Positions 10,871 through 63,891 of a stretch of DNA of 64,000 bases are shown piece after piece (positions within the stretch are counted from its first letter, which is position 1; each line of letters begins with the position of its first letter). Origin of the DNA: an uncultured Candidatus Saccharibacteria bacterium (GTDB lineage Bacteria > Patescibacteriota > Minisyncoccia > JAHISW01 > Tagabacteraceae). The notes under the pieces were generated by a model. It did no database searches. It was not told the origin of the DNA and saw nothing but the letters and a program-made list of their open reading frames with translations. The stretch covers positions 3,116 through 67,115 of the forward strand of contig CAZRMW010000003.1 of assembly GCA_964601305.1 (NCBI GenBank), read 5' to 3'. Made by a program: the position numbers and the translations under genes.

Positions 10871-10935
10871 AATAAAACCGGCGGAGTGTGTTGCTACTAC
10901 CCTGCCGGCTTGCCTCGCTTGGCGAGGTTTGTTTT
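10871..10935 (-). terminator. intrinsic terminator for the 10971-11372 gene (tandem GC hairpins CCTCGCCAAGCGAGG and CCGGCAG...CCGCCGG followed by a T-run on the minus strand)
   Basis: Read on the reverse complement: ...CCGGCAGGGTAGTAGCAACACACTCCGCCGGTTTTATTTTT. Confidence 0.5.
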
Positions 10936-10970: not shown

Positions 10971-11372
10971 CTAGGTACTCTCTTTTTCTTTCTTAAGTGC
11001 GCCTAACGGATATTTTCTACCGCTATGAAATTTTTTTGTAAATTTTCCAGGATCTCCAAAAACCGCTGAACATTGATTGCACTCAAAAACTGGTTTGTAC
11101 CTAGCAAACACCTTCCGAAGAGAGGGATCTTCTAAAATACCTGAAATTCTATATGCGGTGTTTTTTCTTTCTTCGCTTTCAATATCGTTTCCCTGATTAC
11201 CACAAACTGGGCAAACAAAATCCATATCTGCTGCAGTTTTCTTTTTTATTGGTGGGGATTTATATCTTATATTTTTTCCCCACCACGAAGGTTCTCCCAT
11301 TGGGCTCATATTAAATCTCCTTTTTTCTGTTGAGTTAAATTTCTCAAATTCTAAAAATAGAGTAGCACACAC
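10971..11372 (-). CDS. hypothetical zinc-ribbon protein
   Basis: CPVCGNQGN ... CNQC motifs are present. The protein is 133 aa. Confidence 0.45.
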   Translation of the reverse strand: MCATLFLEFEKFNSTEKRRFNMSPMGEPSWWGKNIRYKSPPIKKKTAADMDFVCPVCGNQGNDIESEERKNTAYRISGILEDPSLRKVFARYKPVFECNQCSAVFGDPGKFTKKFHSGRKYPLGALKKEKEST

Positions 11373-18332: not shown

Positions 18333-19327
18333 AAACGCATTACAACTTTGTATGAAGGCCAGCCAAGTGCTTGAAAATGATGATGAATGGGTGCCGCTTT
18401 AAAAACTTTTTTACCTCTAGTTTTTTTAGAAAAGATTTGAATAATGTCTGACGCAGTTGTGGCGGCTAGCGGAAAAGCAATAATAGGTAAAACCAAAACA
18501 GAGTCTGTAAAAAAGGCAATCACGGTTAGCGTGGCAGTGAGGCCAAGCATACCTGTTTCGCTCATATAAAATCTTGCTGGAGGAATATTAAACCACAAGA
18601 ATGCTAAAATTGCGCCAGTAACAACAGCGCAAAAAGTAGCTAAGTCTATTTGGTTTTGAAAAAATGCTATCCCAGTGTACGCAGCAAAAATAGAAGCCAT
18701 AATACCTCCAGAAAGCCCGTCTAATCCATCAATTACTCCTCCGCTAAATACAGCAAGCATTACTATTATAAAAAATGGAATAAAAAGTAGACCAATATCG
18801 AAATGCCCTACAAAAGGAACAAAAACACCACTAATACCAAGTTTGTAAAAAAACCACCACCCGCCAATAAAACCAATTAGTGCCACAAGTAAAATTCTTT
18901 TGGTTAAACTAAGACCACCACCTATATACTTACCTTTTCCGCGAACCTGTAAAATATCGTCTACGAGACCTATTAAAGAAGCCGAGATAAGAGCAAAGAA
19001 AGGAAGCCAGGTTTGAGATCTGCTTAAGAAATTTAGTTTTTCAGTAAATTCTCCAGGAAAAATTTTAGAAATAAATAAAAACAAAAAACTTACAATAAGT
19101 ACGCTGGCCCAAATTACTATACCACCCATTCGTGGAGTTTTGTTTTCTTCGCCTTTTTGTAATTTACTTACCACTGTGGCGTGTTCTCCACTAAGCGCTT
19201 TTTTGCCTACAGTTTTCTTCCACGCCTTGTATTTATATAAGTAATGCGTCAAAAAAGGTGTGAGCCAAATTGCCACAAAGAAAGTAAAAGCAGATAAGCC
19301 AAATACTTTTAAAATATTTAGTCCCAT
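18275..19327 (-). CDS. mraY: phospho-N-acetylmuramoyl-pentapeptide-transferase
   Basis: The protein has 10 TM segments, the DD motifs and PIHHHFQ. Confidence 0.9.
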   Translation of the reverse strand: MGLNILKVFGLSAFTFFVAIWLTPFLTHYLYKYKAWKKTVGKKALSGEHATVVSKLQKGEENKTPRMGGIVIWASVLIVSFLFLFISKIFPGEFTEKLNFLSRSQTWLPFFALISASLIGLVDDILQVRGKGKYIGGGLSLTKRILLVALIGFIGGWWFFYKLGISGVFVPFVGHFDIGLLFIPFFIIVMLAVFSGGVIDGLDGLSGGIMASIFAAYTGIAFFQNQIDLATFCAVVTGAILAFLWFNIPPARFYMSETGMLGLTATLTVIAFFTDSVLVLPIIAFPLAATTASDIIQIFSKKTRGKKVFKAAPIHHHFQALGWPSYKVVMRFWIIGIVCAIVGMVIILVG

Positions 19328-19758
19328 TATTTTTTAATAAAATTTTCTATATGTTTAATAAACTTGTTAAAATCGTCTAGGTCTTTTTTTATGGTAGACA
19401 AAATTTCTTCTGGTTCAACTTTCCAATATAAGTGTACTAATCTATTTCTATATCCAGCCATGCCCTTTATTTTTTCAGCAAAATTTTCTGGGATTACTTC
19501 GTATTTTCCAAGAGATAAAATAACTTGAGTGTAGTCTTTTTTCTTTCCGTTTGTAGGAATTCTAGCTAAAATATGAGTGCCGATTGTTAAAACAGCTTCC
19601 AAAGCCACTCTCAAATGAAAACATGCCAAAGAATAATTATCTTGGTTTTTTGTAAATTCTTTTGCGCTCATCTTCTCAAATTTTTCTAATTCCAAAATAG
19701 AGGCCCGAATATCTGCTATTCTTTCAATAATTTTTTCTTTGTTTAGATTTTTGATCAT
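19327..19758 (-). CDS. hepT: HepT-like HEPN-domain toxin (DUF86, nucleotidyltransferase-substrate-binding family)
   Basis: The R-x4-H HEPN motif YRNRLVHLY is present. The protein is 143 aa and sits immediately downstream of an MNT gene. Confidence 0.7.
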   Translation of the reverse strand: MIKNLNKEKIIERIADIRASILELEKFEKMSAKEFTKNQDNYSLACFHLRVALEAVLTIGTHILARIPTNGKKKDYTQVILSLGKYEVIPENFAEKIKGMAGYRNRLVHLYWKVEPEEILSTIKKDLDDFNKFIKHIENFIKK

Positions 19759-19775
19759 TTTTATTTTTATATAAA

Positions 19776-20339
19776 TTAAGATTGAGACGAAATAGCTAGT
19801 ACTCCCTTAAAGTACTCGTCTATAAAAAATTTATAGTCTCTATAATGATTAATAATTTTTTCTTTAAAGTTGAATGAATTTTCTAAGTTTTTTGTATAAA
19901 TTAATTCTCCTTCAGAAATGATTCGAAACTGAAAATGAAGAGGCACTTCTTCTACAAAGACTAAGTCAATTTTCTTGCCACCAAAACAAGTTGTTAGTTC
20001 AGAAAAAATATTTCCGTAGATTTTTCCTTTTCTTTCTTTTTTTGGCAAACCTTTTTCAAATATTATACCAATATCAAAATCACTTTCTGGGTGTGTGTCG
20101 CCAGAAATTTGAGAGCCAAAAAAATAAATATCAGATAAGCTGTATTTTTCAGCAATTATCTTTAACTCTTTTTTATTAAATTTTATTGCCATACCTACAT
20201 TATGCCCTAAATTAAAAAAATTTAAAACACAAAAAACCTTGACATTTGAATATTTTTGTGATAATTTTTGAAACAGAAATTTATATAGATTTAAAATGTT
20301 AAAAATATTGAAGGAGGTGCTAAGTGGCTGAAGAAACAA
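19776..20339 (-). CDS. mntA: MntA-like minimal nucleotidyltransferase antitoxin; probable true start at the internal ATG ~20192 (MAIKFNKKEL...)
   Basis: The GS-x9-D-x-D motif YFFGSQISGDTHPESDFDIGI is present. The upstream part of the long ORF overlaps a plus-strand promoter. Confidence 0.7.
   Translation of the reverse strand: MFLQPLSTSFNIFNILNLYKFLFQKLSQKYSNVKVFCVLNFFNLGHNVGMAIKFNKKELKIIAEKYSLSDIYFFGSQISGDTHPESDFDIGIIFEKGLPKKERKGKIYGNIFSELTTCFGGKKIDLVFVEEVPLHFQFRIISEGELIYTKNLENSFNFKEKIINHYRDYKFFIDEYFKGVLAISSQS
20239..20266 (+). promoter_or_regulatory. sigma70-like promoter for the 20324 gene (TTGACA-N16-ATAATT; the alternative GATAAT gives N15)
   Basis: TTGACA is at 20239-20244. It is followed by a GGAGGT SD and a GTG start. 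Confidence 0.45.
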
Positions 20340-20898: not shown

Positions 20899-21816
20899 TT
20901 ATTTTACAAATGTTTTGTGTAAGGTTTTTACATCTTCAAATCTTCCTTCAAGAGAAGATCCGAGTATTGTAATTATAACTGGGTTTGCTAAGCCCCTATT
21001 TACAACTACGGACAAATTGCCTCCTGCTGTGTCGCTAAATCCAGTTTTGCCACCAAGTAGCACTGGCAAATCAAAGATAATTTTGTTGGTGTTTTTAAAC
21101 TCTTTGCCATTTAAGATTATTTTTTCTCTAGACGTAGCTTCTAATATGTTTGGATAATTTTTGAGCATATAAGCCATCATACTTGTCATATCTTTGCAGG
21201 AACCAAAATTGCTGGCCACAGTGTCGTTTTCTAAATCCAAACCAGATGTATTTTGAAAAGAAGTTTGGTTTAATTGCATTTCCCCTGCTTTTCTATTCAT
21301 AAGTTTTACAAATTTTGTATCTGTAATCTCATTTCCTTCTCTTAGAGACGAAGCTACAGCAAAGGCAGCATCGTTTGACGAAGAAATAAGCATGGCTTTT
21401 AGGATATCGTTTAGTTGCCACCTTGCCCCTACGTCTAGTCCGTTGTCTCCTTCTTTTAGTAGCGCTTCTTTAGAAATTAATACAGTAGTAGATTCTAGTA
21501 AATTTTCCTTAGCCGTAATTGCCGTCATAATTTTTGTTAAGCTGGCAAGCGGAAGCCTTTTGTTTAGATTTTTTTCAAAAACAAATTTATTTTCTGAAAC
21601 ATCAAAAACACATCCAGATGTCGCTTCTATTTCTATATTTATTTTTGGCGACAATTCTGCCGTTTCTTTTTTATTTATCGATTCAGAAACATTTGCTAAA
21701 GTCTTATCTTTATTTTTGGAATATTGTGGAGCAATAAAGTTTAATCCAGCCAAAAAAACCAAAGCCAAAACAACCTTCAAGATATCTTTTAAAAAATTCG
21801 TTTTTTCTTTGCTCAT
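20899..21816 (-). CDS. D-alanyl-D-alanine carboxypeptidase (serine-type, peptidase S11/PBP5-like)
   Basis: SLTK (SxxK), SSSN (SxN) and KTG motifs are present. An N-terminal signal/TM is present. Confidence 0.8.
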   Translation of the reverse strand: MSKEKTNFLKDILKVVLALVFLAGLNFIAPQYSKNKDKTLANVSESINKKETAELSPKINIEIEATSGCVFDVSENKFVFEKNLNKRLPLASLTKIMTAITAKENLLESTTVLISKEALLKEGDNGLDVGARWQLNDILKAMLISSSNDAAFAVASSLREGNEITDTKFVKLMNRKAGEMQLNQTSFQNTSGLDLENDTVASNFGSCKDMTSMMAYMLKNYPNILEATSREKIILNGKEFKNTNKIIFDLPVLLGGKTGFSDTAGGNLSVVVNRGLANPVIITILGSSLEGRFEDVKTLHKTFVK

Positions 21817-23780: not shown

Positions 23781-23826
23781 AACCCTATCTGAGGGAGATC
23801 GGATCTCCCTCAGATACAAAAGGAGG
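23781..23826 (+). promoter_or_regulatory. repeat cassette copy 1: AAACCCTATCTGAGGGAGATCGGATCTCCCTCAGATAcAAAAGGAGG (31-bp perfect palindrome plus SD) directly upstream of the MFS transporter gene
   Basis: The identical 45-nt sequence recurs at 25034-25080, with one mismatch just before the SD. Confidence 0.55.
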
Positions 23827-25033: not shown

Positions 25034-25080
25034 AAACCCTATCTGAGGGAGATCGGATCTCCCTCAGATATAAAAGGAGG
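25034..25080 (+). promoter_or_regulatory. repeat cassette copy 2 (palindrome TATCTGAGGGAGATCGGATCTCCCTCAGATA plus AAAAGGAGG SD) directly upstream of the GNAT gene
   Basis: It is an exact repeat of the 23781-23826 element. Confidence 0.55.
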
Positions 25081-25084: not shown

Positions 25085-25672
25085 ATGGAAACGAAAAAAC
25101 AAAGAATAATTTTTTTGGAAGGAAAGAAGGTTGTTTTAAGACCGCTAAACAAAAAAACAGATTTGGAAAATGTTACGAAATGGATAAATGACCGAGAAGT
25201 TGTGCAATATTTGCAAGCATTTTTACCAAAAACTTTCCAAGAAGAGAAAGAGTGGCTTAGCAGAAAAAACGATGAAAAAAATATTGTTTTAGCTATAGAA
25301 ACAACCAAGGGAATTCATATTGGAAGCCTGGGTCTACATAACATTGATTCAATACATAGAGTTGTTACGTTTGGAATTATGATAGGAGAAAAAGAGTATT
25401 GGGGAAAAAGATATGGTACAGAGGCCCTGATGCTACTTCTTGAATATGCATTTAACACTTTGAATTTAAGAAAAGTTTGTTTAGATGTGTTTGCTTTCAA
25501 TAACCGCGCAAAAAAAGTCTATGAAAAATGTGGATTTAAAAAAGAAGGTGTCATGAAAGAACACCATTATGTAAACGGTAAATACATAGATGTTGTTTTT
25601 ATGGCAGTTTTTAAAAAAGACTTTCTCAAAATCTGGGAGAAATATTTAACTAGTGAGGTTGAACCTCGCTAG
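25085..25672 (+). CDS. GNAT-family N-acetyltransferase (RimJ/RimL-like)
   Basis: The N-terminal motif RIIFLEGKKVVLRPL ... DLENVTKWINDREVVQYL is RimJ/L-like. An acetyl-CoA binding region is present. Confidence 0.8.
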   Translation: METKKQRIIFLEGKKVVLRPLNKKTDLENVTKWINDREVVQYLQAFLPKTFQEEKEWLSRKNDEKNIVLAIETTKGIHIGSLGLHNIDSIHRVVTFGIMIGEKEYWGKRYGTEALMLLLEYAFNTLNLRKVCLDVFAFNNRAKKVYEKCGFKKEGVMKEHHYVNGKYIDVVFMAVFKKDFLKIWEKYLTSEVEPR

Positions 25673-25674
25673 TT
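25648..25674. repeat. 27-nt exact repeat AACTAGTGAGGTTGAACCTCGCTAGTT (copy 1, supplies the last 8 codons and stop of the GNAT gene)
   Basis: An identical copy lies at 56716-56742 in an intergenic region. It is an imperfect palindrome and can form a hairpin. Confidence 0.6.
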
Positions 25675-25687
25675 ATTGAAAAAATAA

Positions 25688-30628: not shown

Positions 30629-30678
30629 TATAAATATATTGACTTAATTTTTATATTTTCTACAATATGTAGATACCT

Positions 30679-30751
30679 GCCCCGTTAGCTCAGCTGGTAG
30701 AGCAGCTCCCTTTTAAGGAGACGGTCGGGGGTTCGAATCCCTCACGGGGTA
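30679..30751 (+). tRNA. tRNA-Lys (anticodon UUU)
   Basis: A hand-folded cloverleaf gives acceptor GCCCCGT/ACGGGGT, D-arm GCTC/GAGC, anticodon stem GCTCC/GGAGA with loop CTTTTAA (U33, A37), T-arm GGGGG-TTCGAAT-CCCTC and discriminator A. No CCA is encoded. Confidence 0.85.
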
Positions 30752-30765
30752 CAAAACAAAATATT

Positions 30766-34333: not shown

Positions 34334-34804
34334 CTAGCGCTTGCTCCATTGTGCAGCTTTTCTTGCTTTCTTTAGTCCAAACTTTCTTCTTTCTTTCGCT
34401 CTAGGGTCTCTTGTTAGGAAACCTTCCGGTTTTAATATTAGCCTAAATTCTGGATTGAATTTAAGGAGTGCCCTGCTTATCCCCAATCTTATTGCTCCAG
34501 CTTGCGAACTAATTCCGCCTCCCTTTACTTTTACGCTTATAAAAAAGTTTTTTAAAACTTCAACTTTTTTAAGAGGGGCTTTTACTGTATCTCGAAGCTC
34601 TTTAATTGGTAGATAAGTTAACATTGCTTTGTCGTTTATTAAAACATCTCCTTTTTTGCCTTCAGTGGGTTTCTCAAAAAGCCTCACTCTTGCAACAGAG
34701 CTTTTTCTCCTTCCCACAGCTTCAAAGTACTTTCCGCCAGCTGGCGAATTTTTCTTCTTTCTTGCCCCGCTCGGCGGGGTTGTTTTTTCTTTTTTTTCTG
34801 GCAT
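34334..34804 (-). CDS. rpsI: 30S ribosomal protein S9 with a ~25-aa N-terminal extension containing an in-frame GC-rich palindromic element
   Basis: GRRKSSVARV ... the C-terminal AAQWSKR is the S9 signature. The extension [18 protein letters not shown] is encoded by the GC-rich hairpin GCCCCGCTCGGCGGGGT at 34763-34779. Confidence 0.85.
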   Translation of the reverse strand: MPEKKEKTTPPSGARKKKNSPAGGKYFEAVGRRKSSVARVRLFEKPTEGKKGDVLINDKAMLTYLPIKELRDTVKAPLKKVEVLKNFFISVKVKGGGISSQAGAIRLGISRALLKFNPEFRLILKPEGFLTRDPRAKERRKFGLKKARKAAQWSKR

Positions 34805-38112: not shown

Positions 38113-38299
38113 GTGTTTAAAATTAACGAGCGAAGCGAGTATAATTTTTTACACCCCGCCCTTTTATATCTTTTCTTGGTTTTTAATTATTACTATTTTT
38201 AATACTCATATTCTTTATTTGCAATACCTCGCTTCTGTGTATAAGGGCGGGGTAAAGGTTTGCCTACGAAATTTTTTACAAAATTTCGGGCAATTCGCT
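38113..38299 (+). repeat. ~187-bp repeat element copy 1 filling the rpmJ-rpsM intergenic gap (internal long-range inverted repeat CACCCCGCCC...GGGCGGGGT; promoter-like TTTAAA-N18-TATAAT; 3-prime hairpin GCCTACGAAATTTT..AAAATTTCGGGC)
   Basis: It aligns end-to-end at about 75-80% identity with 41668-41858. It begins at the nucleotide after the rpsM start codon. Confidence 0.6.
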
Positions 38300-41667: not shown

Positions 41668-41858
41668 GCTTGAAAATTAATGAACGAAGTGAATATAATT
41701 TTTTGCACCCCGCCCTCTTAATATTTTTTCTTAATTGTTAATCTTTATTATTTTTATACCTATTTTTTAATTACAAATCCCTGCTCTTGTGTGTGAGGGC
41801 GGGGTAAAGGTTTGCCTACGAAATTTTAAATAAAATTTCGGGCAATTCTTCTTTATTT
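41668..41858 (+). repeat. ~190-bp repeat element copy 2 (TTGAAA-N18-TATAAT promoter-like box, CACCCCGCCC...GGGCGGGGT inverted repeat, 3-prime hairpin plus U-rich tail), beginning right after the start codon of the 40414-41667 gene
   Basis: It is a paralogue of 38113-38299 with the same orientation, antisense to the flanking minus-strand genes. Confidence 0.6.
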
Positions 41859-47585: not shown

Positions 47586-47777
47586 ACGCCCCGCCCCTCA
47601 AAGATAAATTTATACCACAGGCTCTCAAAAAAATTTTTCATTTCGTTCCTCCCTTGCCTGACCCGAAGGGTTTAGAAGGCTCAAAAAATTATAAAAATTT
47701 TATATCAAATATTCTGCTTTCAATTTACATCATTTCTACCATTTTGTCAAGACCTAAAATTCAAAAAACCAAATTTA

Positions 47778-47805
47778 GCAAATACTCGCGATCGCGAGTA
47801 TTTGC
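47778..47805. terminator. bidirectional terminator palindrome GCAAATACTCGCGATCGCGAGTATTTGC followed by a T-run (contains GCGATCGC)
   Basis: It lies directly after the mnmA stop. Confidence 0.5.
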
Positions 47806-47812
47806 TGTTTTT

Positions 47813-48892
47813 TTATTTTATTGTCCCACCTCCCAGCATTGTGTCCCCTTCATAAATTACAAGAGATTGCCCCGAAGCCACCCCCACCTGCCCTTCCTCA
47901 AAAACAACTTTAATTTGCATCGACATCGGGTGTCGATGTATTCTACATTTTTGCAGTGGTTGCCTGTATCTAATTCTTGCTAGATAGTTTTTTAATAAAT
48001 CGGGAGTTTCCCCTAAAGTCCAATTTATATCTTTTATTTCCGCTTTCTTCTTCAAGTATTCACCGATGTCGGACATCGGTGAAACTACTAAAATATTTTT
48101 CTTTATATTTTTTTCTACTATATACATTGGTGCTTCTTTCCCGCTCAAACCGAACCCGTGCCTCTGGCCAATTGTATAATACTGTACTCCTCTATGTTCC
48201 CCTATTTGATTTCCCTTATCATCAAAAATTTTTCCTGGTTTTGGTTTTATATAATTTTTTAAAAATTCCTCCATATTGAACTCCCCCACAAAACAAAGTC
48301 CTTGGCTATCTTTTTTCTCTGCCACTGGCAAGCCAAACTTTTTAGCCATGTCTCGCACTTCTGTTTTTTGGTAATCTCCAAGCGGGAACAAACAGTGCTT
48401 TAGTTGCTCCTGCCCAAGCGTCCATAAAAAATAACTCTGATCCTTGCTCTTATCCTCCGCAAGCTCTAATCTGTTGGAAGTCGGACCTCCAACAGATACA
48501 ATTTTTACGTAGTGACCTGTGGCGATTTTATCTGCTCCTATTTCTCGAGCTTTTTTTAGAAACAAATCAAACTTTATATGCTTGTTGCACATAATATCTG
48601 GGTTTGGAGTTCGCCCTTCTTTGTATTCGGCTATCATATAGTCGATAATGTGTTTTTTGTACTCTTTAGAAAAATCAAATGTATAAAAAGGAATGTCTAA
48701 CATGGCACACACACGCATAGCGTCCCTTCTGTCTTCTCGCCAAGTGCAAGGAATGCCTGTTGGATACCATCCACGAATAAACACGCCAGACACATTGTAG
48801 CCTTGTTTTTTAAGCATCGCGGCAGTAGTAGAGCTATCTACCCCACCACTCATACCAACAAATATTTTTTGGGTTTTATCTTGACTTTTCAT
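47813..48892 (-). CDS. mnmA: tRNA-specific 2-thiouridylase MnmA
   Basis: The PP-loop SGGVDSS, the catalytic Cys region and the C-terminal RIRYRQ ... GGGTI are present. The gene contains two in-frame GC-rich palindromes. Confidence 0.85.
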   Translation of the reverse strand: MKSQDKTQKIFVGMSGGVDSSTTAAMLKKQGYNVSGVFIRGWYPTGIPCTWREDRRDAMRVCAMLDIPFYTFDFSKEYKKHIIDYMIAEYKEGRTPNPDIMCNKHIKFDLFLKKAREIGADKIATGHYVKIVSVGGPTSNRLELAEDKSKDQSYFLWTLGQEQLKHCLFPLGDYQKTEVRDMAKKFGLPVAEKKDSQGLCFVGEFNMEEFLKNYIKPKPGKIFDDKGNQIGEHRGVQYYTIGQRHGFGLSGKEAPMYIVEKNIKKNILVVSPMSDIGEYLKKKAEIKDINWTLGETPDLLKNYLARIRYRQPLQKCRIHRHPMSMQIKVVFEEGQVGVASGQSLVIYEGDTMLGGGTIK

Positions 48893-49356: not shown

Positions 49357-50562
49357 TTATCTATTTTTCCTTACTTGTTTTATTGCAAATCTATGCGCTT
49401 CAGCATCTACTTTTAAAAACAAATCTTTTTGTGCAGAAAACATTTCTCGTACAGATTTTTTAAGTTTGGCGCTAAAAATTATATTATAATCTTTAGCCGA
49501 AGATTGTGAGTGCTTCCCTGCTTTAGAAATACCAACTACTGGTATTTCTAGATTAACATTTTTTAAAATTTTTAAAAAAGTATTTACTTGTTGCCTTCCC
49601 CCATCTACCACAATTATGTCTGGGTATTGCCATTCTTTGTGTTTTAGTCTTCTTTCTAAAACTTCTCTAAGTGCCCCTGTGTCGTCTCCCACTCCAGCAC
49701 TTTTTATTTTAAAAAGTCTATAATCTTTTTTACTAGCTTTTCTGTTTATAAAAACTGCCATCGATCCATAAACATCTCCCTTCCCAAATTGAGAAATATC
49801 ATAGCCTTCTATTCGCATAGTACATATTTTATGCGATCGCATTATTTGTGTACTATGTGGTATTAAAACGATGTCGTCTAAAAACTTCCTGTTAGTTTTT
49901 GGGTTTTTGCTCTTTAAAAATCTTATAAGCCCACGGATTATTTTTTTATATTCTTTAGAGTTTATTTCCCTTGTACACACTCCAGCACATAATCCAATCT
50001 GATTGTGGAAGCAGGGCTTACCCCCCTCGGCGGGGCTTGCCAGAGGCACGCATGTACTGTACGGATAAATTCTCCTTGCTACACTCAAAATATTTTTTAA
50101 TTCTCTTACGCTCTGAAATGGCCCCACTAAATTTTTTGGCTTCCCCGCCGAGCGGGGTAAACCATATTTTTTTAAGTCTCTTTCGCGAACTACCACGGGC
50201 TTGGGGAAATCTTTATTCATATTAAAAAACAAATAGACAAAACTTTTGTGGTCTTTGTCTTTTATATTGTATTTTGGCCAATACTTTTTAATTAAATTAT
50301 TCTCAAGCACCGCCGACTCCAGCAAATTGTTGGTCTCTACAAAAGAAACTTTCTCTACCTCCCCCACAAACTGTTCCACCGGCCTTCTGTTGGAGGTCCG
50401 ACTTCCAACAGATAGAAAGTAGGAGGAGATGCGGGTTTTTAGGTTGGCTGCGCGGCCGACATATATTACCTTTTTCTTTTTATTTAAAAACAAATAAACC
50501 CCTGTCTTTTTTGGCAGTTTTTTCAAAAAATCCTTATTTTTATTGACTTTTATTGACTTCAT
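49357..50562 (-). CDS. uvrC: excinuclease ABC subunit C, short form (GIY-YIG domain plus RNase-H-like endonuclease domain; no (HhH)2)
   Basis: The N-terminal GIY-YIG is GVYLFLNKKKKVIYVGRAANLKTRISSYF. The C-terminal DAEAHRFAI is present. The protein is 401 aa. It contains two CCCCGCYSGGCGGGG hairpin elements. Confidence 0.75.
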   Translation of the reverse strand: MKSIKVNKNKDFLKKLPKKTGVYLFLNKKKKVIYVGRAANLKTRISSYFLSVGSRTSNRRPVEQFVGEVEKVSFVETNNLLESAVLENNLIKKYWPKYNIKDKDHKSFVYLFFNMNKDFPKPVVVRERDLKKYGLPRSAGKPKNLVGPFQSVRELKNILSVARRIYPYSTCVPLASPAEGGKPCFHNQIGLCAGVCTREINSKEYKKIIRGLIRFLKSKNPKTNRKFLDDIVLIPHSTQIMRSHKICTMRIEGYDISQFGKGDVYGSMAVFINRKASKKDYRLFKIKSAGVGDDTGALREVLERRLKHKEWQYPDIIVVDGGRQQVNTFLKILKNVNLEIPVVGISKAGKHSQSSAKDYNIIFSAKLKKSVREMFSAQKDLFLKVDAEAHRFAIKQVRKNR

Positions 50563-50615: not shown

Positions 50616-50686
50616 AGATATCCTTCTTCTGGGGTTGAAGGGTTCATGGTTAAGGGGGGCAACCGTTTGCCCCCCTTTTTTTTATT
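50616..50686 (+). ncRNA. candidate ~70-nt small RNA (promoter to GGGGGGCAACCGTTTGCCCCCC plus U9 terminator)
   Basis: A consensus-like promoter and a strong intrinsic terminator are present. An internal hairpin CCUUC...GAAGG is present. There is no ORF. Confidence 0.3.
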
Positions 50687-53195
50687 TCAGATACCCTTTT
50701 AAATATTCCCCTGTGTGGGAATTTTTATTTTGGGCAACTTCTTCTGGTGTACCTTTTGCCACAAGTTTACCACCTTTATCTCCCCCATCTGGCCCCAAGT
50801 CTATTATATAATCCGCTACTTTTACAATGTGCATGTTGTGCTCAATTACTACTACCGTGTTTCCTTTTTCTACTATTTTTTGTAACACATCTAAAAGCAT
50901 TTTTATATCGTCGTAGTGCAAGCCAGTAGACGGCTCGTCCAGCAGATAAACAGCATTTCTTACAAATGGCTTGCTAAGCTCTTTGGCAAGTTTTATTCTC
51001 TGTGCCTCTCCACCACTAAGCGTAGTTGCTGGTTGGCCAAGCTTTATGTATCCAAGCCCTACATCTTTTAGCACTTTCAGCTTGTCTGAAATGGTATAAA
51101 TATCTTTAAAAAATTCATATGCTTCTTCCACTGTCATTTTTAAAACATCTGAAATATTTTTGTCTCTGTGTTTTACTTCTAAAGTTTCTCTATTAAATCT
51201 TTTTCCTTGACACACATCGCACCCCACAGACACCGCCGGCAAAAAATGCATCTCTACCAAATTAAATCCCACACCATCGCATGCTTCGCATCTTCCGCCT
51301 GGTTTGTTGAATGAAAATCTCCCTGCTCTGTACCCTCTTTCACGTGCGTCTTCAAGCTCCGCGAAAAACTCACGAATAGGTGTCCAAATACCTGTATAAG
51401 TAGCCGGGTTGGAGCGTGGACTTCTACCAATTGGTGATTGGTTTATTTCTATAACTCTACTTAAATATTCTAATCCCAAAATTTTTCCTACATTTTTAAA
51501 GCCAACATCCCTTCTTTTATAGTTTACATTCGCTAAATTTTTATGAAGTACCTCATAAAGCAAGCTACTCTTGCCACTCCCAGACACACCCGTAAGACAC
51601 ACCAATTTTTTTAGTGGTATATCTATATTTACATTTTTTAAATTATTTACTTTAGCGCCAATTATTTGCACTTTTTCGTGTATCTTTTTACGCCTTTCTG
51701 GAAGATCTATTTTTTGCTTGCCTACCAAATAATCTATGGTTGAAGATTTTTTATTTTTTAAGGCTTTACTAATCTCCTCGTTTACTACCACCTCGCCCCC
51801 ATGCCTTCCAGGGCCAGGGCCAAGATCTACCAAATGGTCGGACTCCATAATAGTTCTCTCGTCGTGCTCTACCACTATTACAGTGTTTCCAGCTTTTTTT
51901 AATTCTTTAAGAGTTTTTATTAGTCTTTTGTTGTCGCGCTCGTGTAAGCCTATTGTTGGCTCATCTAAAACATAGAGCGTTCCTGCGAGCTTGGAGCCGA
52001 TTTGGGACGCGAGGCGTATTCTTTGCGCTTCGCCACCGCTAAGCGTAGATGCTTTTCTGTCGAGTGTCATATACTCTAGGCCTACTTCTAAAAGAAACCC
52101 TAACCGAGAAATAATTTCTCTGAGAGGTTCTTTGGCAACGCTATTTTCTTTTTTATTTAGCTTGCTTTCTAAATTTATAAAAAATTCATAAGCCTCTGTG
52201 ATATTTTTAGAAATTATATCGTGAATATTTTTGTTAGAGATTTTTACAGAAAGCGCTTCTTCTTTTAGCCTTTTACCTTTACATGCTGGACACTTTTCTT
52301 TTGTAAAAAAATCTTGCATACCTAAACCCGAACATGCCTCGCACGCTCCATGTGGACTATTGAAAGAAAATAGCCGTGGCTCAATTTCTGGAAAAGCAAA
52401 TTCGTCTTTAGGGCAATTCCATTTTGAAGAATATAATTTTTCTTCGCTTAAAAATTTTGCTACCACTAATCCCTTGCTATAATTGAGTGCGTCTTCTACT
52501 GCTTCCGTAAGCCTAGAAATATCTTTAGGTTGGACTTTATCTATTAAAATTTCTATGTCGTGCTTTTTGTTTTTGGTTAGATTTATCTGATCGTGAAGAG
52601 AATGCTTTTTGCCATCTACCCTTGCTTCTTCATACCCTTTGTCTAAAAAATCATAAAGAAGCTGATAATACTCCCCTTTTCTACCTCTAACTACTGGAGA
52701 AAATATCGACACAAAACCTGCTTTCTCTTTGTTGGCTCGTTTTATTATAGAGTCTACAATTTCTTGCGCGCTCATTTTTTTTATTTTGCCTCCACATTTT
52801 GGACAATAAACAACCCCGATTCTTGCATAAAGCACACGCAAATAATCATAAATTTCTGTAAGAGTAGCCACTATAGAACGCGGGTTTCTTCCATGCGCTT
52901 TTTGATTTATAGCAATTGCTGGAGAAAGGCCTTCAATGTCGTCTACATCTGGCCTATCGGATTGACCCAAAAACTGTCTTGCGTATGGCGACAAAGATTC
53001 TATATATCTTCTTTGTCCTTCCACAAAAATAGTATCGAAAGCAAGAGAGGACTTTCCGCTTCCAGACACACCAGTAAATACTATCAGCTTATCTTTTGGA
53101 ATCTCTAAGCTGATGTCTTTCAAATTGTGCACTCTAGCACCTTTTATTTTTATTTTTCTTGCCCCGCTCGGCGGGGTTTTATTTTCCTTTTTCAT
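50682..53195 (-). CDS. uvrA: excinuclease ABC subunit A
   Basis: Two ABC ATPase modules ([17 protein letters not shown]) and Cys4 zinc fingers are present. The N-terminus [14 protein letters not shown] is encoded by the same GC-rich 24-mer as in rpsI. Confidence 0.9.
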
Positions 53196-55041
53196 TCTTT
53201 TTGTCTATATTCAAAAATCTTTCTATTTTCTTTTTTATGGTCTGTGGCTTTATGCCATGTTTTTTGTTGTATTCTAGCTGAATTTTTCTCCTTCTTTCAG
53301 TTTCCTCCACTGCCCTCTTTACCGATTTTGTCTTTTCGTCTGCATAAAGAATTACTCTTCCTGCACTGTTTCTAGCAGCACGACCTATTGTTTGAATAAG
53401 CGAAGTTTCGTTTCTTAAAAACCCTTCTCTATCTGCATCTAAAATTGCTACTAAAGATACTTCTGGTAAATCTAACCCTTCTCTAAGCAAGTTTACTCCC
53501 ACAAGCACATCAAACTTTCCTTCTCTAAAATTCGTAAGCGTATCGGCTCGCTCCAAAGTTTTTATATCGCTATGTATATATCTACACCTTATTTTCTTTC
53601 TCTTTAAAAAATCTGTAAGCTCTTCTGAGCTTCTTTTGGTAAGAGTTATCGCAAGCACTCTTTCATTTTTGGAAACGGTTTTCTCAATTTCTTCAAGCAA
53701 ATCATCAATCTGCGTTTTTTGCTTTTTGTTGGAAGCTAAGCTTCCAACAGATACAATTGGGGCGACTGGACGGATGAAAATTTTGGGATCCACTAGTCCT
53801 GTAGGGCGTATTACCTGCTCTACCACACCTTCTGAATTTTCTTTCTCAAAATCTGCTGGAGTAGCTGAAGTAAAAATAGTTTGGCCAATCCTCTGCTCGA
53901 ACTCTTTAAAATTGAGCGGCCTATTGTCTATTGCACTTGGGAGCCTCCATCCGTGCTCTACTAAAATATTTTTTCTGCTTTTGTCCCCAGCAAACATACC
54001 TCCAATTTGTGGTACAGCTAAATGAGATTCATCTATAATTGTTAAAAATTCATCTGGCAATCCAAAATATGAAAGAAGTGTTTCTGGAGGATCACCAGCA
54101 AATTTGCCAGTTAAGTGCCTAGAATAATTTTCTATGCCATGGCAATAGCCAACTCTGCCTATCATTTCTAAGTCATATTTTGTTCTTTTTTCAAGACGCT
54201 CTTCTTCAAGAAGTAATCCATTTTTTCTAAAATGTTTTAATCTTTCTTTTAGTTCATTTTTGATATCTTTAATTGCCCTTTTCCTTTCTGGTGCAGACAT
54301 TATAAAATGCTTTGGAGGAAAAATCACAACATCTTTTATGCCCTCTAACTTATGCTTTGTAAGTGGGTCGAATTTAATAATATTTTTAATTTTTTGATTT
54401 TCTAAAATTATTTTATAAGCAATATCTTCAGAAGCTGGCATAAATTCTATTTTATCGCCTCTCACCCTAAAATGCCCCCTCTTGAGGGAGATTGGGTTTC
54501 GCTCAAAATGTATTTTTATAAATTGCTTTATTAAGTCTTTGCGAGTAATCATTTTGCCTACTTCAAGCACTAAGCTAGATTTTAAATATCTTTCAGGAAC
54601 TCCAAGATTGTAAATACACGATACGGACGCTACGACTATTACATCTTTTCGGGTAAGGAGAGCAGAAGTAGCTTCGTGACGAAGTTTTTCTATTTCATCG
54701 TTTATCATTGCCTCTTTTTGTATATATGTATCAGTAATTGGAAGATATGCTTCTGGTTGATAATAATCGTAATAAGAGACAAAGTAGCAAACTTTGTTTT
54801 CTGGAAAAAAATTTTTGTACTCGCTATAAAGCTGTGCTGCCAAAGTTTTATTTGGTGCTATCACTAGTGTTGGTTTGCCAGTTTTTTCTATAATATTTGC
54901 TGTCGAAAAAGTTTTTCCGCTTCCTGTTACACCCAAAAGAGTCTGGTATCTTTTACCAGATTTTAGTCCTTTTGTAAGCTGATCAACCGCTTCTGATTGA
55001 TCTCCTGCTAATTTGAAACTTGAATGTAGTTTAAATTTCAT
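53179..55041 (-). CDS. uvrB: excinuclease ABC subunit B (start placed at [19 protein letters not shown]; the upstream in-frame ORF extension to 55218 is rejected)
   Basis: The helicase motif GVTGSGKTF, a beta-hairpin and a C-terminal UvrB/C domain are present. The N-terminus aligns with canonical UvrB starting at the internal Met. The extension reads through a GC-rich intergenic palindrome. Confidence 0.9.
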
Positions 55042-56715: not shown

Positions 56716-56742
56716 AACTAGTGAGGTTGAACCTCGCTAGTT
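56716..56742. repeat. 27-nt exact repeat AACTAGTGAGGTTGAACCTCGCTAGTT (copy 2, intergenic)
   Basis: It is identical to 25648-25674. Confidence 0.6.
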
Positions 56743-56811: not shown

Positions 56812-57408
56812 TTAGTTTTTTATAATTGCAACAACCCTAGGAATATTTACAGATTTTTTTGAAGAAACCCTTAAAGAACAAAACTTATCCATTAATCTGT
56901 GGCCAACCCATTCATAATCTACATATTTTCCAAAAAGGAGACTTTTCCCAATAAAATTAAGCCAATCACTCTCTGTTAACAACTTCGTACCAAGATAATG
57001 GTATGAATTTCCAGAGTTTAAAACAACCCCTTCTTTTTCTTCAGTTTCATACAAAAATTCAAGAATTTTTAATAAATTTTCGTTTGAAACAGAGCACCGA
57101 AAATCGATCATTGGTATATGAAAAATTTCCTTATCTATTTCTACTTTTGAAGATAAAGCTAGGGCATATCCATCTTTCAAACAATTATCAGTATATTCAA
57201 TAGCTCTACTCAAAATATCTTCTCTTCTCAACACAAAAACTCCCTCTGTCCTTGTTTCTCTATGGTAAAGTAGTCTGGAAACATAGGAAGAAATTTTTTT
57301 CTTTTTGCTTTTGCCAAAACGATATGTCTTAAATGTTAAATATGAAATTTGCGTATTTTTCAAAAGAAAGTATTGAACAGCTTCTATAATATTGTCGCCT
57401 ATTTTCAA
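56812..57408 (-). CDS. hypothetical protein (weak resemblance to archaeo-eukaryotic primase small-subunit motifs)
   Basis: HIPMIDFRC and LNSGNSYHYLG resemble AEP motifs I and II. The match is degenerate and the confidence is low. Confidence 0.3.
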   Translation of the reverse strand: MKIGDNIIEAVQYFLLKNTQISYLTFKTYRFGKSKKKKISSYVSRLLYHRETRTEGVFVLRREDILSRAIEYTDNCLKDGYALALSSKVEIDKEIFHIPMIDFRCSVSNENLLKILEFLYETEEKEGVVLNSGNSYHYLGTKLLTESDWLNFIGKSLLFGKYVDYEWVGHRLMDKFCSLRVSSKKSVNIPRVVAIIKN

Positions 57409-59493: not shown

Positions 59494-62400
59494 CTATGCC
59501 GGGTTCGGCAGATAATCTTCCCAATTAAATGGACGTGGATTTGTTTCCACAAAATCTTTAATTACATCGTAAGGCAATACTCTCCAAAAAACAGGTCCGC
59601 TATCAGGGCCATCTACAGGAACGCCCAGAAAAGAGACTCCTGTATTATTTGGAGCAAAACCATTTTCCCCATAAGCGTCTGTATGGACTGCAGCTGGGGA
59701 CATTTGATAGATTGCATGGTCAGTACTAATTCCGCTAAAAAAATGCTTGTCTCCAAAAAATTTAAGGACAGGAAGTTTCCTGTTCCAAATTCTACTATAA
59801 TTTCCTCTTCGAAGATCTTTTTTAACATGTCCCTTTAGTGGATCGCCCCATCCAGCCATATTGGTGGGAGCGGAGCGAATTTCTATACCATATTCATGTT
59901 TCCCTTCTACAGAAATTATTCCCCAACCAATACAAGTTTTTCCGTACACGGGAGCGAGTACATGTTTGCCAATAAACTTTTTTTGATCTCTCCATTCATT
60001 TGTTTGAAGAAGAAGATCTCTCAATCTCATCGCATAAAGGGGACCTTCTATCATCTCTCCATCAGTAGTTCTGGCGAAATGATTTCCAGTACCAATATTT
60101 ATAAGGCCTATATTTCTGGAATCGTACCCTCCAAATTCTGGAACAGTAATCTCTCCAACACTGAGCACTCTTACTTTTGCACTTTGTGATCTTCTTAAAA
60201 TTGCGCTAAAAATATCTAAGTTCGGTTCTATATGCCTTTCCATCATTTGCATAAGCTGACTAAGTAAATAATCAGTCCCTCTTTTTTCAAACTGGTAAAG
60301 AGCCAATTTTCGAATTTCGTCAGCTGCTTGTAGAACATCTTCTTTCTTTCTCAAACTCATTGCTTGCCTCAAAAGATCTCCTGTATTTTTTTCTATACGA
60401 TCATACGACATTTCATGAGGGTGTGGTTCTGTACGATATTTTACATTTTGAGCCTGAGTAGGATCGTCTGGAGAAGCAAGAAAATGAATTGGCATATTAT
60501 TGCCTTCACAAAGACCCTGTTGTCTCATCATATGAAATACAGCTTCAGCCATACTTAAACGCACAGATACACCATTTACGTTTACCCAAAAGAATTCCTT
60601 AGATCTCCCCCCCCAATGGTGATCAGAGCAAATCATAAACCACAAATTCTTGGAGCTACGTGCATAAACAGCAGCCCCCTTAGTTTTTTTTGTTACCAAC
60701 GACTTAGGGTAATTTTTAAAAGCCTCAAGTGCTTTGACAGGAATCTCTTCAACATCAAGCACTCCATTACTACAACGCAACCTAATAACACCCGATTTAA
60801 ACATTCTGTTGTAAACTGCTTTCATAATGGGGTGATCTTTCGTTCTTAAAGAACTTCTTTGTGAACGAATAAACTCACCATCAATAGCTATAGGAGCCAC
60901 ACAAACACCCATAGAATCTCTCTGCCCATCATGGTCTATCTCACGACCAGTCATTCTTGTCTGAAGCGACCAAGGGTGACAAATTACGACCTGGTCAGGA
61001 TTTTTTTCTCTCAACACATCTGGCGCATAAGTATTAGCGTAATCGTTTAACAAGCCATCAGTTACCCTCAAATGAGAAGGTATATAAATTTTTATAAGTT
61101 TATCATTAATTTTTAAGTAACTCGTACCTTCTCCTATAACTTTGGAGTTAGGAATTGCGGATTCAATTTTTTGAACAACAACACTGTAAACATGTTTAAA
61201 AAATCTACGAGACTCCTGACTAGCAACATTGCTTACAATGGTAATGGAGCGCTGATATTCTAAGGACTCCAGTTCGATATTTTTTTCTCTAAGGTCTTTT
61301 CTGGCTTCTTTTGTATCTCCGTCGACACTAGCAATTTTACCCAGTTTGCTTTCGGCTTCTTTACAAGATTTTCTGAAAGTTTTAATTGCTTCATCTAGTC
61401 TTTTTTGCTCTCTTAACGTACAACGCCATATTTCCCAATATGTAACAGCAGAAATAAAGGCAAGCTCATTTGCACCAATAACAACAAAAACTGGCCCACT
61501 ATATTCAGGTCTTTCTGTTTTATTTTTTGTTTCTTCGGCTGGTATGGTAAAAACGTTGATCCACCCACCAAGAACATCATTAACCAATTCTTCTGTGGTT
61601 CTATAAGCAACTTTATCCAATGGCTTTTCTGTAATTATTCCTTTCACTATCTGCCTATAAATCTTGTCTTCAACAAGCTCTGGATTGATGTTGTCGCCCA
61701 AAATTTGAGCACGTGCTGTTTTTGCGGGCCCACCAGCTTTCTTTAGATCAAAACATAAAAAGTTGGTGATAATGACTGCAGAGTCTTTACGCATTTCAGC
61801 ATCACTAAGAGCTTTTCTTGCAGTATTCCCAACAATATCTGGTCCATGCATTAATCCAAAATTTGCACCATTTAACACAGTGGGTGCCCAATTTAAAGGG
61901 TCTTCTGTTTTTAATACATAAGGATTATTAAAGGTCGATTTAGGAATTTCAAAATTTGGTATACCACTAGTCAAATCCATTCTTCCTAAGCCTTTTAATT
62001 TTTTACCCATTAATTTTTTGCCTCTACCAGAGACTAGGCCACGGTGCCATTCAATTCTTTTTTTAATAAACTCTTGAGGCACATGCGGATAAACTGTCGT
62101 AAAATTTTCAATAATTTCTTCAGTTTTTTCACGCTCTAAATCTTGCCTAACAAAACCCTGAAGCGTACTGTTTAAAGCTTTTTGACGATTCGATAGTTTA
62201 ACAAAAATTAAATCATAAATTTTATTTTTAAACTTTCTCTTGTCTGGCCTGTTGTTTGGAAAGTCTTCCGTAATATTAGCGTGAAGTTTATCAATCCCAC
62301 CTTCTTCCAAAAGAATCCCAGTTTCAACGAGTTCCAAAATCCGAGCATTTACAGTTTTGCTCGGAGCTTTTTTCTTCTCCGCCGCCTCCTTCTTCGCCTT

Positions 62401-62775
62401 CTTTGCATCAGCTGTTTTTGTACTGGCGGGACGTTCTATGTCTAACACTCTCGCTATATTACTGGTCTGTGTTATATTTTCTAATCTATATTTTTTAGTA
62501 ATCTCTGAGACAGGCATTTTACTCTGATAGTCTTTTTTAAAATTCCTTTTTTTCTTTGCGCTCCATTGTGCCAAGATGCCTTTAGTGTCCATTTTAAGAC
62601 CCTCAAAATGTCCTCTTCGTTCAAATGCTTTTCTGACACTCTCTACTGTCCGACCAAAGCAACAACTTTTCTTATCCTTAACTGCTTTCTTCATCTTCTT
62701 ATATAAATCAGAGCGAGTTTTACATCCCTTCCTTATTCTTTTAAGTTCTACTTCATCATATTTTTTATATGCCAT
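59494..62775 (-). CDS. large hypothetical protein (1093 aa) with a lysine-rich N-terminus and no recognisable P-loop; GC content (~40-45%) elevated relative to flanks
   Basis: It is one long uninterrupted ORF with a basic N-terminal ~150 aa (KKAKKEAAEKKKAPSK). I recognise no family. Composition is atypical for the window. Confidence 0.55.
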   Translation of the reverse strand: MAYKKYDEVELKRIRKGCKTRSDLYKKMKKAVKDKKSCCFGRTVESVRKAFERRGHFEGLKMDTKGILAQWSAKKKRNFKKDYQSKMPVSEITKKYRLENITQTSNIARVLDIERPASTKTADAKKAKKEAAEKKKAPSKTVNARILELVETGILLEEGGIDKLHANITEDFPNNRPDKRKFKNKIYDLIFVKLSNRQKALNSTLQGFVRQDLEREKTEEIIENFTTVYPHVPQEFIKKRIEWHRGLVSGRGKKLMGKKLKGLGRMDLTSGIPNFEIPKSTFNNPYVLKTEDPLNWAPTVLNGANFGLMHGPDIVGNTARKALSDAEMRKDSAVIITNFLCFDLKKAGGPAKTARAQILGDNINPELVEDKIYRQIVKGIITEKPLDKVAYRTTEELVNDVLGGWINVFTIPAEETKNKTERPEYSGPVFVVIGANELAFISAVTYWEIWRCTLREQKRLDEAIKTFRKSCKEAESKLGKIASVDGDTKEARKDLREKNIELESLEYQRSITIVSNVASQESRRFFKHVYSVVVQKIESAIPNSKVIGEGTSYLKINDKLIKIYIPSHLRVTDGLLNDYANTYAPDVLREKNPDQVVICHPWSLQTRMTGREIDHDGQRDSMGVCVAPIAIDGEFIRSQRSSLRTKDHPIMKAVYNRMFKSGVIRLRCSNGVLDVEEIPVKALEAFKNYPKSLVTKKTKGAAVYARSSKNLWFMICSDHHWGGRSKEFFWVNVNGVSVRLSMAEAVFHMMRQQGLCEGNNMPIHFLASPDDPTQAQNVKYRTEPHPHEMSYDRIEKNTGDLLRQAMSLRKKEDVLQAADEIRKLALYQFEKRGTDYLLSQLMQMMERHIEPNLDIFSAILRRSQSAKVRVLSVGEITVPEFGGYDSRNIGLINIGTGNHFARTTDGEMIEGPLYAMRLRDLLLQTNEWRDQKKFIGKHVLAPVYGKTCIGWGIISVEGKHEYGIEIRSAPTNMAGWGDPLKGHVKKDLRRGNYSRIWNRKLPVLKFFGDKHFFSGISTDHAIYQMSPAAVHTDAYGENGFAPNNTGVSFLGVPVDGPDSGPVFWRVLPYDVIKDFVETNPRPFNWEDYLPNPA

Positions 62776-63048: not shown

Positions 63049-63891
63049 TTATTTTAAAGTCAATTCTATCGGACAATGGTCTGAACCCATAATGTCTGAT
63101 AAAATTTCCGTAGATTTTACGTTTTTTACAAATTCTTTGGATACGAAAAAATAATCAATCCTCCACCCTACATTTCTGTCTCTTGCTCTGCTTTTCATAT
63201 CCCAATATGTGTAAGCCTCTTTTTTGTCTGGATAAAAGTGGCGGAAAATATCTACATAACCTTTTTTAATAACTTGAGTTATCCACAGGCGCTCTATCGG
63301 TAAAAATCCAGTATGTTTTTCGTTTGCTTTTGGTCTAGCCAAATCTATTTCTTCGTGCGCCGTATTTACATCTCCACAAAAAATTATGCCTGCCCCGCCC
63401 GGCGGGGGTTTTTTTCTAAGTTTTTCGACATATTTTAAAAACGCATCATAAAAATCCATTTTATATTTAAGTCTTTCTGGTCCCATCCCCCCGTTTGGAA
63501 AATAAACATTTAGTAATACAAAATCTTTAAAATACAAAACAAGTATTCTTCCTTCTTTATCGAACTTTTCTATACCTATGCCGTACTCTACTTTTTTTGG
63601 CTGCTCTTTTGTGTAAACAGCTACACCACTATAACCTTTTTTAACTTCTGAAGATGAAAAATACGCATGGTACTTATCCACAACCCTAATTTCTTCTGAA
63701 AGTTGCGTCTCATTTGCTTTTGCCCGCCTCGACTCGCTGTCGTTTGTCGACGCGAGGCGGGTTTCTTGAAGGCACAAAATATCTGGATTTTGTTTTTTTA
63801 TAAATGGTAAAAGCAACTCTTTTTTGTGAAGAGCTCTTATGCCATTTATATTCCAAGAAATTATTTTCATAAATATTATAAACAAAATCAA
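63049..63891 (-). CDS. xth: exodeoxyribonuclease III (AP endonuclease); probable start at MKIISWNINGIRA
   Basis: WNINGIRA ... LCLQET ... CGDVNTAHEEIDLARPKANEKHTGF ... GSDHCPIEL are ExoIII motifs. Two GC-rich palindromic elements lie in frame (PPPGGAG, RLASTNDSESRRAKA). Confidence 0.8.
   Translation of the reverse strand: MILFIIFMKIISWNINGIRALHKKELLLPFIKKQNPDILCLQETRLASTNDSESRRAKANETQLSEEIRVVDKYHAYFSSSEVKKGYSGVAVYTKEQPKKVEYGIGIEKFDKEGRILVLYFKDFVLLNVYFPNGGMGPERLKYKMDFYDAFLKYVEKLRKKPPPGGAGIIFCGDVNTAHEEIDLARPKANEKHTGFLPIERLWITQVIKKGYVDIFRHFYPDKKEAYTYWDMKSRARDRNVGWRIDYFFVSKEFVKNVKSTEILSDIMGSDHCPIELTLK

Follow-up and report, generated by a model that had tools for sequence, protein, structure and literature searches.

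A palindromic, GC-rich 24-mer, TTTCTTGCCCCGCTCGGCGGGGTT, lies in frame in the genes for ribosomal protein S9 (rpsI) and UvrA (uvrA) on a 64,000-nt stretch of contig CAZRMW010000003.1 (assembly GCA_964601305.1) from an uncultured Candidatus Saccharibacteria bacterium, hereafter the window. It probably belongs to a family of selfish, copy-and-paste palindromic repeats, akin to repetitive extragenic palindromes (REPs) and Rickettsia palindromic elements (RPEs), whose copies survive at permissive sites of proteins. The 24-mer occurs exactly twice in the whole window, both times on the + strand (34758-34781 and 53155-53178); no other match was found in the window with up to three mismatches allowed, and 100 dinucleotide-preserving shuffles of it yielded no copy. 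An earlier reading of the letters alone (the sequence-only reading) had placed the uvrA copy correctly and the rpsI copy one position too low, at 34757-34780. It had also described the core as a perfect hairpin far richer in GC than the genome, and this was confirmed: the core CCCCGCTCGGCGGGG (CCCCGC-TCG-GCGGGG) forms a perfect 6-bp stem with a 3-nt loop, with RNA folding energies of -11.4 kcal/mol (sense) and -12.8 kcal/mol (antisense), in a window of 34.4% GC. The flanks common to the two identical copies are just AA before the hairpin and CAAGAAA after it. The uvrA copy begins 3 nt past the uvrB stop codon and the rpsI copy 25 nt past that of rplM. Because independent assemblies (JGI, ENA, Logan and NCBI) from several samples encode the same host proteins, an assembly artefact was excluded; the contigs bearing the exonuclease III gene stop some 100 nt upstream of it. 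Samples containing this population are JGI 3300009374, 3300009375 and 3300009405, ENA ERZ23499038, ERZ23499079 and ERZ23498905, and SRR8062331.

Both genes carry the element in the same reading frame, as had been proposed, but the peptide common to S9 and UvrA is TPPSGARK, preceded by K in UvrA and by T in S9, and the longer KTPPSGARK is exact in UvrA only. Every copy that could be compared with orthologues proved to be a lineage-specific in-frame insertion, of 18 nt in uvrA, 15 and 15 nt in uvrC, and 18 and 39 nt in the exonuclease III gene, all multiples of three. The closest GTDB genomes are metagenome-assembled genomes and a single amplified genome of Patescibacteria, with UvrA identities of 87%, 80% and 72%. 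UvrA of the relatives L008 and L007 (which in L007 starts with MSTDKNQKIKIRGARVH) has the same start codon and equal length once the 18 nt are removed, and what had been taken for an N-terminal extension of UvrA is merely an insertion of six codons relative to these two proteins. Both five-codon segments of uvrC are missing from six orthologues, and the 13-codon and 6-codon segments of exonuclease III from the L009 orthologue and from 119 database homologues. The orthologue comparison suggested by the sequence-only reading likewise found the shared peptide absent from UvrA of L008 and L007 and TPPSGA absent from all 119 S9 homologues, though several of these retain the MPEKK start. Since homologues lacking TPPSGA keep the same start, the hairpin appears to be translated in S9 and UvrA; moreover, uvrA has no in-frame ATG, GTG or TTG between the hairpin and the conserved IKIKGAR directly after it. 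Translation through the hairpin is, by these comparisons, well supported. A palindrome made of G and C only is free of stop codons in all six frames, and five of the seven antisense-oriented intragenic copies are read in the TPP(S/G)GA frame, which gives small residues (TPPSGA or PPPGGA). No target-site duplication emerged when filled and empty sites were compared.

With up to two mismatches allowed, the window has six occurrences of the pattern CCCCGC-N3-GCGGGG where 0.17 would be expected: in rpsI, in uvrA, twice in uvrC, in the exonuclease III gene and in one intergenic space (Table 1). These copies, here called family A, follow the + strand consensus C(T/C)TG-CCCCGC-YYG-GCGGGG-TT. In the intergenic copy at 10913 the stem has undergone a compensatory C>T / G>A change that keeps the pairing, and its CTTG and TT flanks match those of the exact copies. 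The same organism has a third exact 21-mer within rpmA (ribosomal protein L27), on a 3-kb extension of the contig past the window, where it encodes a C-terminal KTPPSGASK. The sequence of this organism covered by our counts thus amounts to about 67 kb (the window plus 3 kb) and contains 6-8 family A copies in 64 kb plus one in the 3-kb flank, approximately one per 9 kb. With at least six core copies in the window and the exact 21-mer in rpmA, the element is not limited to the two sites first noticed. A special enrichment at gene 5' ends, for which the sequence-only reading had suggested a test, was not borne out: two copies lie at the 5' end of a gene, one at the 3' end, four in the interior and one between genes.

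Table 1 Coordinates of the palindromic elements of the window and of their host genes.
Feature	Position	Core	Strand	Remarks
Family A copy in rpsI	34758..34781	34765-34779	+	Codons 9-16; minus-strand reading TPPSGARK
Family A copy in uvrA	53155..53178	53162-53176	+	Codons 7-14; 18-nt in-frame insertion vs L008, L007
Family A variant CTTG-CCTCGC-TTG-GCGAGG-TT	10909..10931	10913-10927	+	Intergenic, 44 nt past stop of ORF 10971..11372
Family A core in uvrC	50143..50157		-	Peptide LPRSAGKP; loop reversed in orientation; 15-nt insertion vs 6 orthologues
Family A core in uvrC, one stem mismatch	50021..50035		+	Peptide SPAEGGKP; 15-nt insertion vs 6 orthologues
Family A variant CCTG-CCCCGC-CCG-GCGGGG-GTT in exonuclease III gene	63389..63410	63393-63407	+	18-nt insertion, peptide PPPGGAG
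Longer hairpin CCCGCCTCG...CGAGGCGGG in exonuclease III gene	63723..63761		-	Related arms; 39-nt insertion encoding RLASTNDSESRRA
Family B TCTGTTGGAAGC-TTA-GCTTCCAACAAA in uvrB	53725..53751		-	27-nt insertion (APIVSVGSL), missing from 6 orthologues
Family B in uvrC	50386..50412		-	N-terminal domain; peptide SVGSRTSNR
Family B in mnmA	48469..48497		-	Peptide SVGGPTSNR; replaces variable loop, no net length gain
Long intergenic element between rpmJ and rpsM	38152..38293		-	12-bp long-range stem, then second hairpin
Long intergenic element, second copy	41706..41845		-	86% identical to 38152..38293 copy
Host gene rpsI (ribosomal protein S9)	34334..34804		-	PF00380
Host gene uvrA	50682..53195		-	
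Host gene uvrC	49357..50562		-	Carries three palindromic elements
Host gene exonuclease III (xth-like)	63049..63870		-	PF03372; two family A insertions

In S9 the copy lies in an N-terminal tail that is rich in Lys and Thr and of variable length across the phylum, and the copies of UvrA and L27 in an N-terminal and a C-terminal tail, respectively, both of them, like that of S9, rich in lysine. An AlphaFold2 model of exonuclease III with a mean predicted local distance difference test score (pLDDT) of 86.6 rendered both insertions as coil, the 13-residue one with pLDDT < 50 (residues 41-52) and the 6-residue one joining helix 131-153 to strand 161-167. Other lineages have independent insertions at this 6-residue loop, and those of L192 and L194, being GC-rich yet not clean hairpins, were not counted as family members. 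A further insertion at this loop, in the exonuclease III of another Patescibacteria lineage (L193:4843-4949), is palindromic, in frame and 105 nt (35 aa) long, with a folding energy of -32 kcal/mol, and its termini (AACCCC...GGGGCAGG) match the copy in the exonuclease III gene of the window. The S9 gene of another lineage (L195:3001-3430) has a 141-aa N-terminal extension comprising several GC-rich hairpin-like segments, e.g. GGCGTCACAGACGCC; the S9 extension in L196 was set aside as possibly untranslated 5' sequence.

Outside this genome, JGI metagenomes were scanned for exact copies of CTTGCCYCGCYYGGCGRGGTT, in a collection that does not include this organism itself; the scan returned 38 contigs, about half of them of low GC (0.30-0.46) and representing some nine sites, where a back-of-envelope estimate from composition gives less than one chance match in low-GC sequence. 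Most of these low-GC 21-mer matches are intragenic and in unrelated genes, with hosts that include ribosomal protein L4 (LTPPSGAS), a MiaB-MiaA open reading frame (ORF; NPAERGK), IscU (LAPLGGV), a CvpA/CAP protein and the C-terminus of a solute-binding protein, and the 21-mer is identical in organisms of 30-43% GC. Nearer relatives have GC hairpins close to where the uvrA copy of the window lies, at the uvrB/uvrA junction: in L007 the C-terminal tail of UvrB has CCCCGCCCGGCGGGG, and in L009 a dissimilar GC hairpin occupies this place. A GC hairpin recurs at the junction in three of four relatives, and L008 has none there. Viral contigs were not informative, the bare 15-nt core giving at least 120 unrelated matches, probably GC-rich, and the flanked pattern a single GC-rich and irrelevant phage contig. 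A relative of 44% GC (L010) has a different repeated palindrome, TCCGCCAACTGGCGGA, with TCATYCTGA/TCAGGAKGA arms, at 2733-2750, 2863-2878 and 21490-21557, and two adjacent hairpins lie within a 629-aa ORF.

The element recurs with identical non-palindromic flanks at three unrelated sites, is inserted relative to orthologues, keeps the frame, occupies tails and loops and is found in other lineages too, all of which argues for a copied element. The preference of the sequence-only reading for a mobile or recombining hairpin over convergence at the protein level was upheld, the peptide being missing from orthologues and the element not limited to two sites. New family A copies would land anywhere in the genome and, because the GC-only hairpin is free of stop codons, those insertions that are a multiple of three long (15, 18 or 39 nt) would leave the host gene open and add just 5-13 residues. 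Selection would then retain only copies at permissive places, namely Lys-rich disordered tails at either terminus, loops on the surface and junctions between genes, and would favour the small-residue frame (TPPSGA). On this reading the peptide shared by S9 and UvrA would be a passenger of the DNA element and not a functional motif. Spread would most likely pass through a hairpin of single-stranded DNA as an intermediate at the replication fork, for which a trans-acting enzyme of the HUH/Y1 type, similar to the REP-associated tyrosine transposases (RAYTs) and encoded elsewhere in the genome, could be the agent; alternatively, copying could occur by microhomology-guided template switching between A-tracts.

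Several observations weigh against a selfish repeat of this kind. No transposase or RAYT was seen among the Pfam annotations of the window and flank (67 kb). The mobility of family A is read from comparison rather than seen in action, the 90% protein clusters of the four host proteins of the window holding one sequence each and the three members of the rpmA (L27) cluster being equal in length, and insertions of 15-18 nt are, to our knowledge, shorter than any element of demonstrated transposition. The palindromic insertions that an unbiased comparison with orthologues turned up, six in number, all fall in uvrA, uvrB, uvrC or the exonuclease III gene (6.6 kb) and none in 7.1 kb of other compared genes (nominal p about 0.01, post hoc), an excess in repair genes that a purely neutral model does not predict. 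The GC hairpins of L007 and L009 at the uvrB/uvrA junction differ in sequence and position, which hints at selection for a hairpin or at a hotspot. Finally, two perfect palindromes lie in variable loops of mnmA (48059-48083 and 47916-47940) that have the same or nearly the same length in L007, and such length-neutral cases fit formation in place better than insertion.

An unlikely alternative is that the hairpins are selected RNA-level signals, either antisense intrinsic terminators or stabilisers or attenuators of operon mRNA placed after an upstream stop (rplM/rpsI and uvrB/uvrA), with the coding sequence accommodating them. A terminator scan marked the + strand copies at 34764, 53161 and 63393; the copy at 10913 consists of the same hairpin followed by TTTGTTTT, its pairing preserved by a double change; the uvrA and rpsI copies start very shortly after upstream stops; and L007 and L009 have a GC hairpin at the 3' end of uvrB. 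The T-run, however, lies outside the inserted DNA, its A-rich context being present at the empty sites of L008 and L009, and it is missing from the copies of other lineages and from the two in uvrC. Four copies lie deep within genes, the uvrB/uvrA junction of L008 does without a hairpin, and the sense RNA has A-rich sequence after the hairpin, hence no sense terminator. The look of an antisense hairpin with a T-run is most easily explained as a side effect of insertion into AAA-rich lysine codons, and an antisense terminator was rejected as the main explanation, given a T-run that is older than the insertion and lacking in other lineages.

Two long intergenic elements of the window (~140 nt) have a 12-bp stem, (T)ACCCCGCCCT..AGGGCGGGGT, that encloses about 80 AT-rich nt, and their CCCCGCC arms are common to family A, of which they may be full-length relatives. 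The repeat of 140 nt matched no Rfam family, and only a tRNA-Lys reached the gathering score when Rfam was run on the window. This tRNA-Lys(UUU), at 30676-30752, is the sole tRNA of the window and has a G1.U72 closing pair; its leader and acceptor stem read cCCTGCCCCG...CGGGGT, and the leader with the 5' acceptor strand, CCTGCCCCG, and the closing pair match the + strand of family A (CYTGCCCCGC...GCGGGGT), a likeness that may be coincidental or may reflect an origin from a tRNA. A speculative extension, to which we attach little probability, would unite these features: the hairpins of 15-21 nt would be collapsed derivatives, reduced to the arms, of an element of 100-145 nt with CCCCGCC termini common to divergent Patescibacteria (the long forms being 38152-38293, 41706-41845 and the 105-nt exonuclease III copy of another lineage), the + strand of which would mimic or derive from the tRNA-Lys(UUU) leader and acceptor stem, and the concentration in genes of nucleotide-excision and base-excision repair would be no accident. 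If so, the window would repeat the unexplained bias of REPs towards uvrABC in other phyla, and would suggest that short palindromic repeats are truly connected with the repair machinery, as preferred target or as modulator of repair.

The window is rich in palindromes in general, with 62 hairpins of at least nine pairs against about 21 in block shuffles, or roughly three times as many. A second family of about 29 nt, family B, is defined by TATCTGTTGGARG-N-CYTCCAACAGA and was found in uvrB, uvrC and mnmA, and also at L145:3042-3071. Its three copies in the window are alike over about 30 nt, are 75-78% identical to the reference copy across 36 nt, and share one frame, SVG[SG]x[TA]SN[RK]. We consider it very unlikely that such palindromes, family A included, formed in place by lineage-specific template switching, one arm being copied from the other and their likeness reflecting a shared bias. 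The threefold excess of palindromes would fit this explanation, as would the mnmA palindromes, among them a family B copy, with their variable loops and near-constant length, and the uvrC of L008, which already reads PRS (CCG AGA TCG) at the first uvrC site where the window has CCC CGC TCG. Independent formation cannot, however, account for identities between sites such as the exact 21-24-mer at three of them, non-palindromic flanks included, the same 21-mer in other organisms, and three family B copies alike over some 30 nt.

Even less credible is that the hairpin serves as a DNA-level recognition signal for uptake or recombination, enriched in genome-maintenance genes and read by a conserved protein, in the manner of the DNA uptake sequences (DUS) of Neisseria. 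Patescibacteria have natural competence, and the bias of DUS favours genome-maintenance genes; in keeping with such a signal the copies concentrate in uvrA, uvrC (two), xth (two) and the uvrB tail, and the 21-mer is identical across organisms of 30-43% GC. The density of family A, however, is far under the approximately one per kb of known uptake sequences, the matches in other lineages lie in L4, MiaA, IscU and others rather than in repair genes, and a very large metagenome collection held just about nine low-GC sites; the repair-gene excess is itself post hoc and confounded by a uvrABC cluster spanning only 6 kb. That the rpsI and uvrA hairpins are untranslated, with true starts downstream and the "extensions" artefacts of annotation, is scarcely tenable: REPs that annotation places at N-termini often lie outside genes (PMC3733652) and an AGGTG followed by GTG occurs downstream in uvrA, but no in-frame start separates the insertion from IKIKGAR, the N-terminus without the 18 nt matches L008 and L007 in length and start, the MPEKK start of S9 is common to homologues, and the internal copies of uvrC and exonuclease III cannot be skipped.

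Further palindromes were recorded in the window. Two identical perfect 31-nt palindromes, TATCTGAGGGAGATCGGATCTCCCTCAGATA, at 23786-23816 and 25040-25070, lie directly 5' of AAGGAGG ribosome-binding sites, preceding a gene for a major facilitator superfamily (MFS) transporter and one for an acetyltransferase; their ends are TATCTG/CAGATA as in family B, and each could be an operator or a hairpin of the 5' untranslated region. A 27-mer palindrome, AACTAGTGAGGTTGAACCTCGCTAGTT, is present in two copies (25647-25675 and 56716-56742), one of which overlaps the acetyltransferase gene at its 3' end while the other is intergenic. Just past the stops of mnmA and the exonuclease III gene (47777-47806 and 62994-63023) are 30-nt palindromes centred on CGATCG, one perfect and one with a single mismatch, of similar architecture and different sequence. 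Past the uvrA stop, a hairpin at 50652-50677 is preceded by an A-run in the sense direction, giving a T-run on the antisense strand, and is thus terminator-like in the "wrong" direction.

Other features of the window include a 926-aa MmeI-like type IIG/IIL restriction-modification enzyme with N6_Mtase, MmeI_Mtase and Eco57I domains (25-2805), adjoining genes for a HepT-like RNase and a nucleotidyltransferase (MNT), resembling a toxin-antitoxin pair, within a cell-wall gene cluster (19327-20339), and a protein with a primase domain of the archaeo-eukaryotic primase (AEP) type (56812-57408) near a 1093-aa ORF (59494-62775) that has no Pfam match and is 62-64% identical in L007 and L009. At about 9200-9700 gene orientation and GC skew switch together, from + genes and positive skew before ~9.5 kb to - genes and negative skew after it, which is consistent with a replication terminus or a strong coding-strand bias.

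Among known systems, intrinsic terminators share with family A a GC-rich stem of 6-7 bp, a short loop and a T-run (on the + strand, in five of seven copies), but in family A the T-run is antisense to the host genes and predates the insertion, and the copies are intragenic rather than at operon ends. At approximately one copy per 9 kb over 67 kb, against about one per kb, the family is also unlike DUS and uptake signal sequences (USS). MITEs (miniature inverted-repeat transposable elements; 50-500 bp) can be compared with the 140-nt copies, which have 12-bp inverted termini with no duplication or parent insertion sequence seen, whereas the short copies are far smaller. The GC clusters of yeast mitochondria, which include in-frame insertions in var1 and form size classes sharing termini (PMC8811140), are likewise short GC-rich palindromes scattered in an AT-rich genome, some of them in frame in coding regions. 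They are, however, organellar, usually 30-50 bp long and in some cases bypassed in translation, and their AG/TAG terminal repeats are read as target-site duplications, of which none was seen in family A.

The precedent offered by the sequence-only reading, RPEs, fits in part: they too are palindromic repeats inserted in frame within genes of a small AT-rich genome, translated and tolerated at positions compatible with the fold. RPE-1 is about 100-150 bp long. Family A, with a core of 15 nt, a unit of identity of 21-24 nt and most copies of 15-21 nt, is far shorter, has no sequence relationship to RPEs and is one of several palindrome families, and the size of an RPE is reached only by the two 140-nt intergenic elements and the 105-nt exonuclease III insertion of L193. 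Our literature search, aimed at elements of this sort in bacteria or Patescibacteria, found no description of any in Patescibacteria, which is absence of evidence only. Should family A prove genome-wide, selfish DNA within coding genes would extend from Rickettsia and some Proteobacteria to Patescibacteria, organisms usually seen as streamlined, and units of 15 nt would raise the question of how so little DNA gets copied. Annotation is concerned as well: in Patescibacteria, many an unusual peptide rich in Pro, Gly, Ala and Arg, or N-terminal "extension" of variable length, may be a translated palindrome.

REPs resemble family A in being short, GC-rich, repeated stem-loops (stems of 5-13 bp, small loops), some of which are read through within ORFs. 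We rejected membership of family A among them because the GTAG/CGTC tag is missing, the 5' flanks being CTTG (four copies), CCTG, TTTA and CTTA and the 3' flanks TT, GT, AA and CT. Moreover, seven of the eight family A copies lie in ORFs and all are single units, whereas REPs are mostly extragenic and often occur as inverted dimers or bacterial interspersed mosaic elements (BIMEs), and no RAYT was seen here by Pfam in the 67 kb. The bias towards repair genes is nevertheless common to both: many intragenic REPs of other phyla, with GTAG or CGTC tags (Di Nocera et al. 2013), lie in repair genes, uvrA, uvrB and uvrC among them, where they take up loops or terminal positions, N- or C-terminal (PMC3733652). 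The recurrence of palindromic insertions in uvrA, uvrB, uvrC and xth of this organism provides an independent test case for the unexplained repair-gene bias of intragenic REPs.

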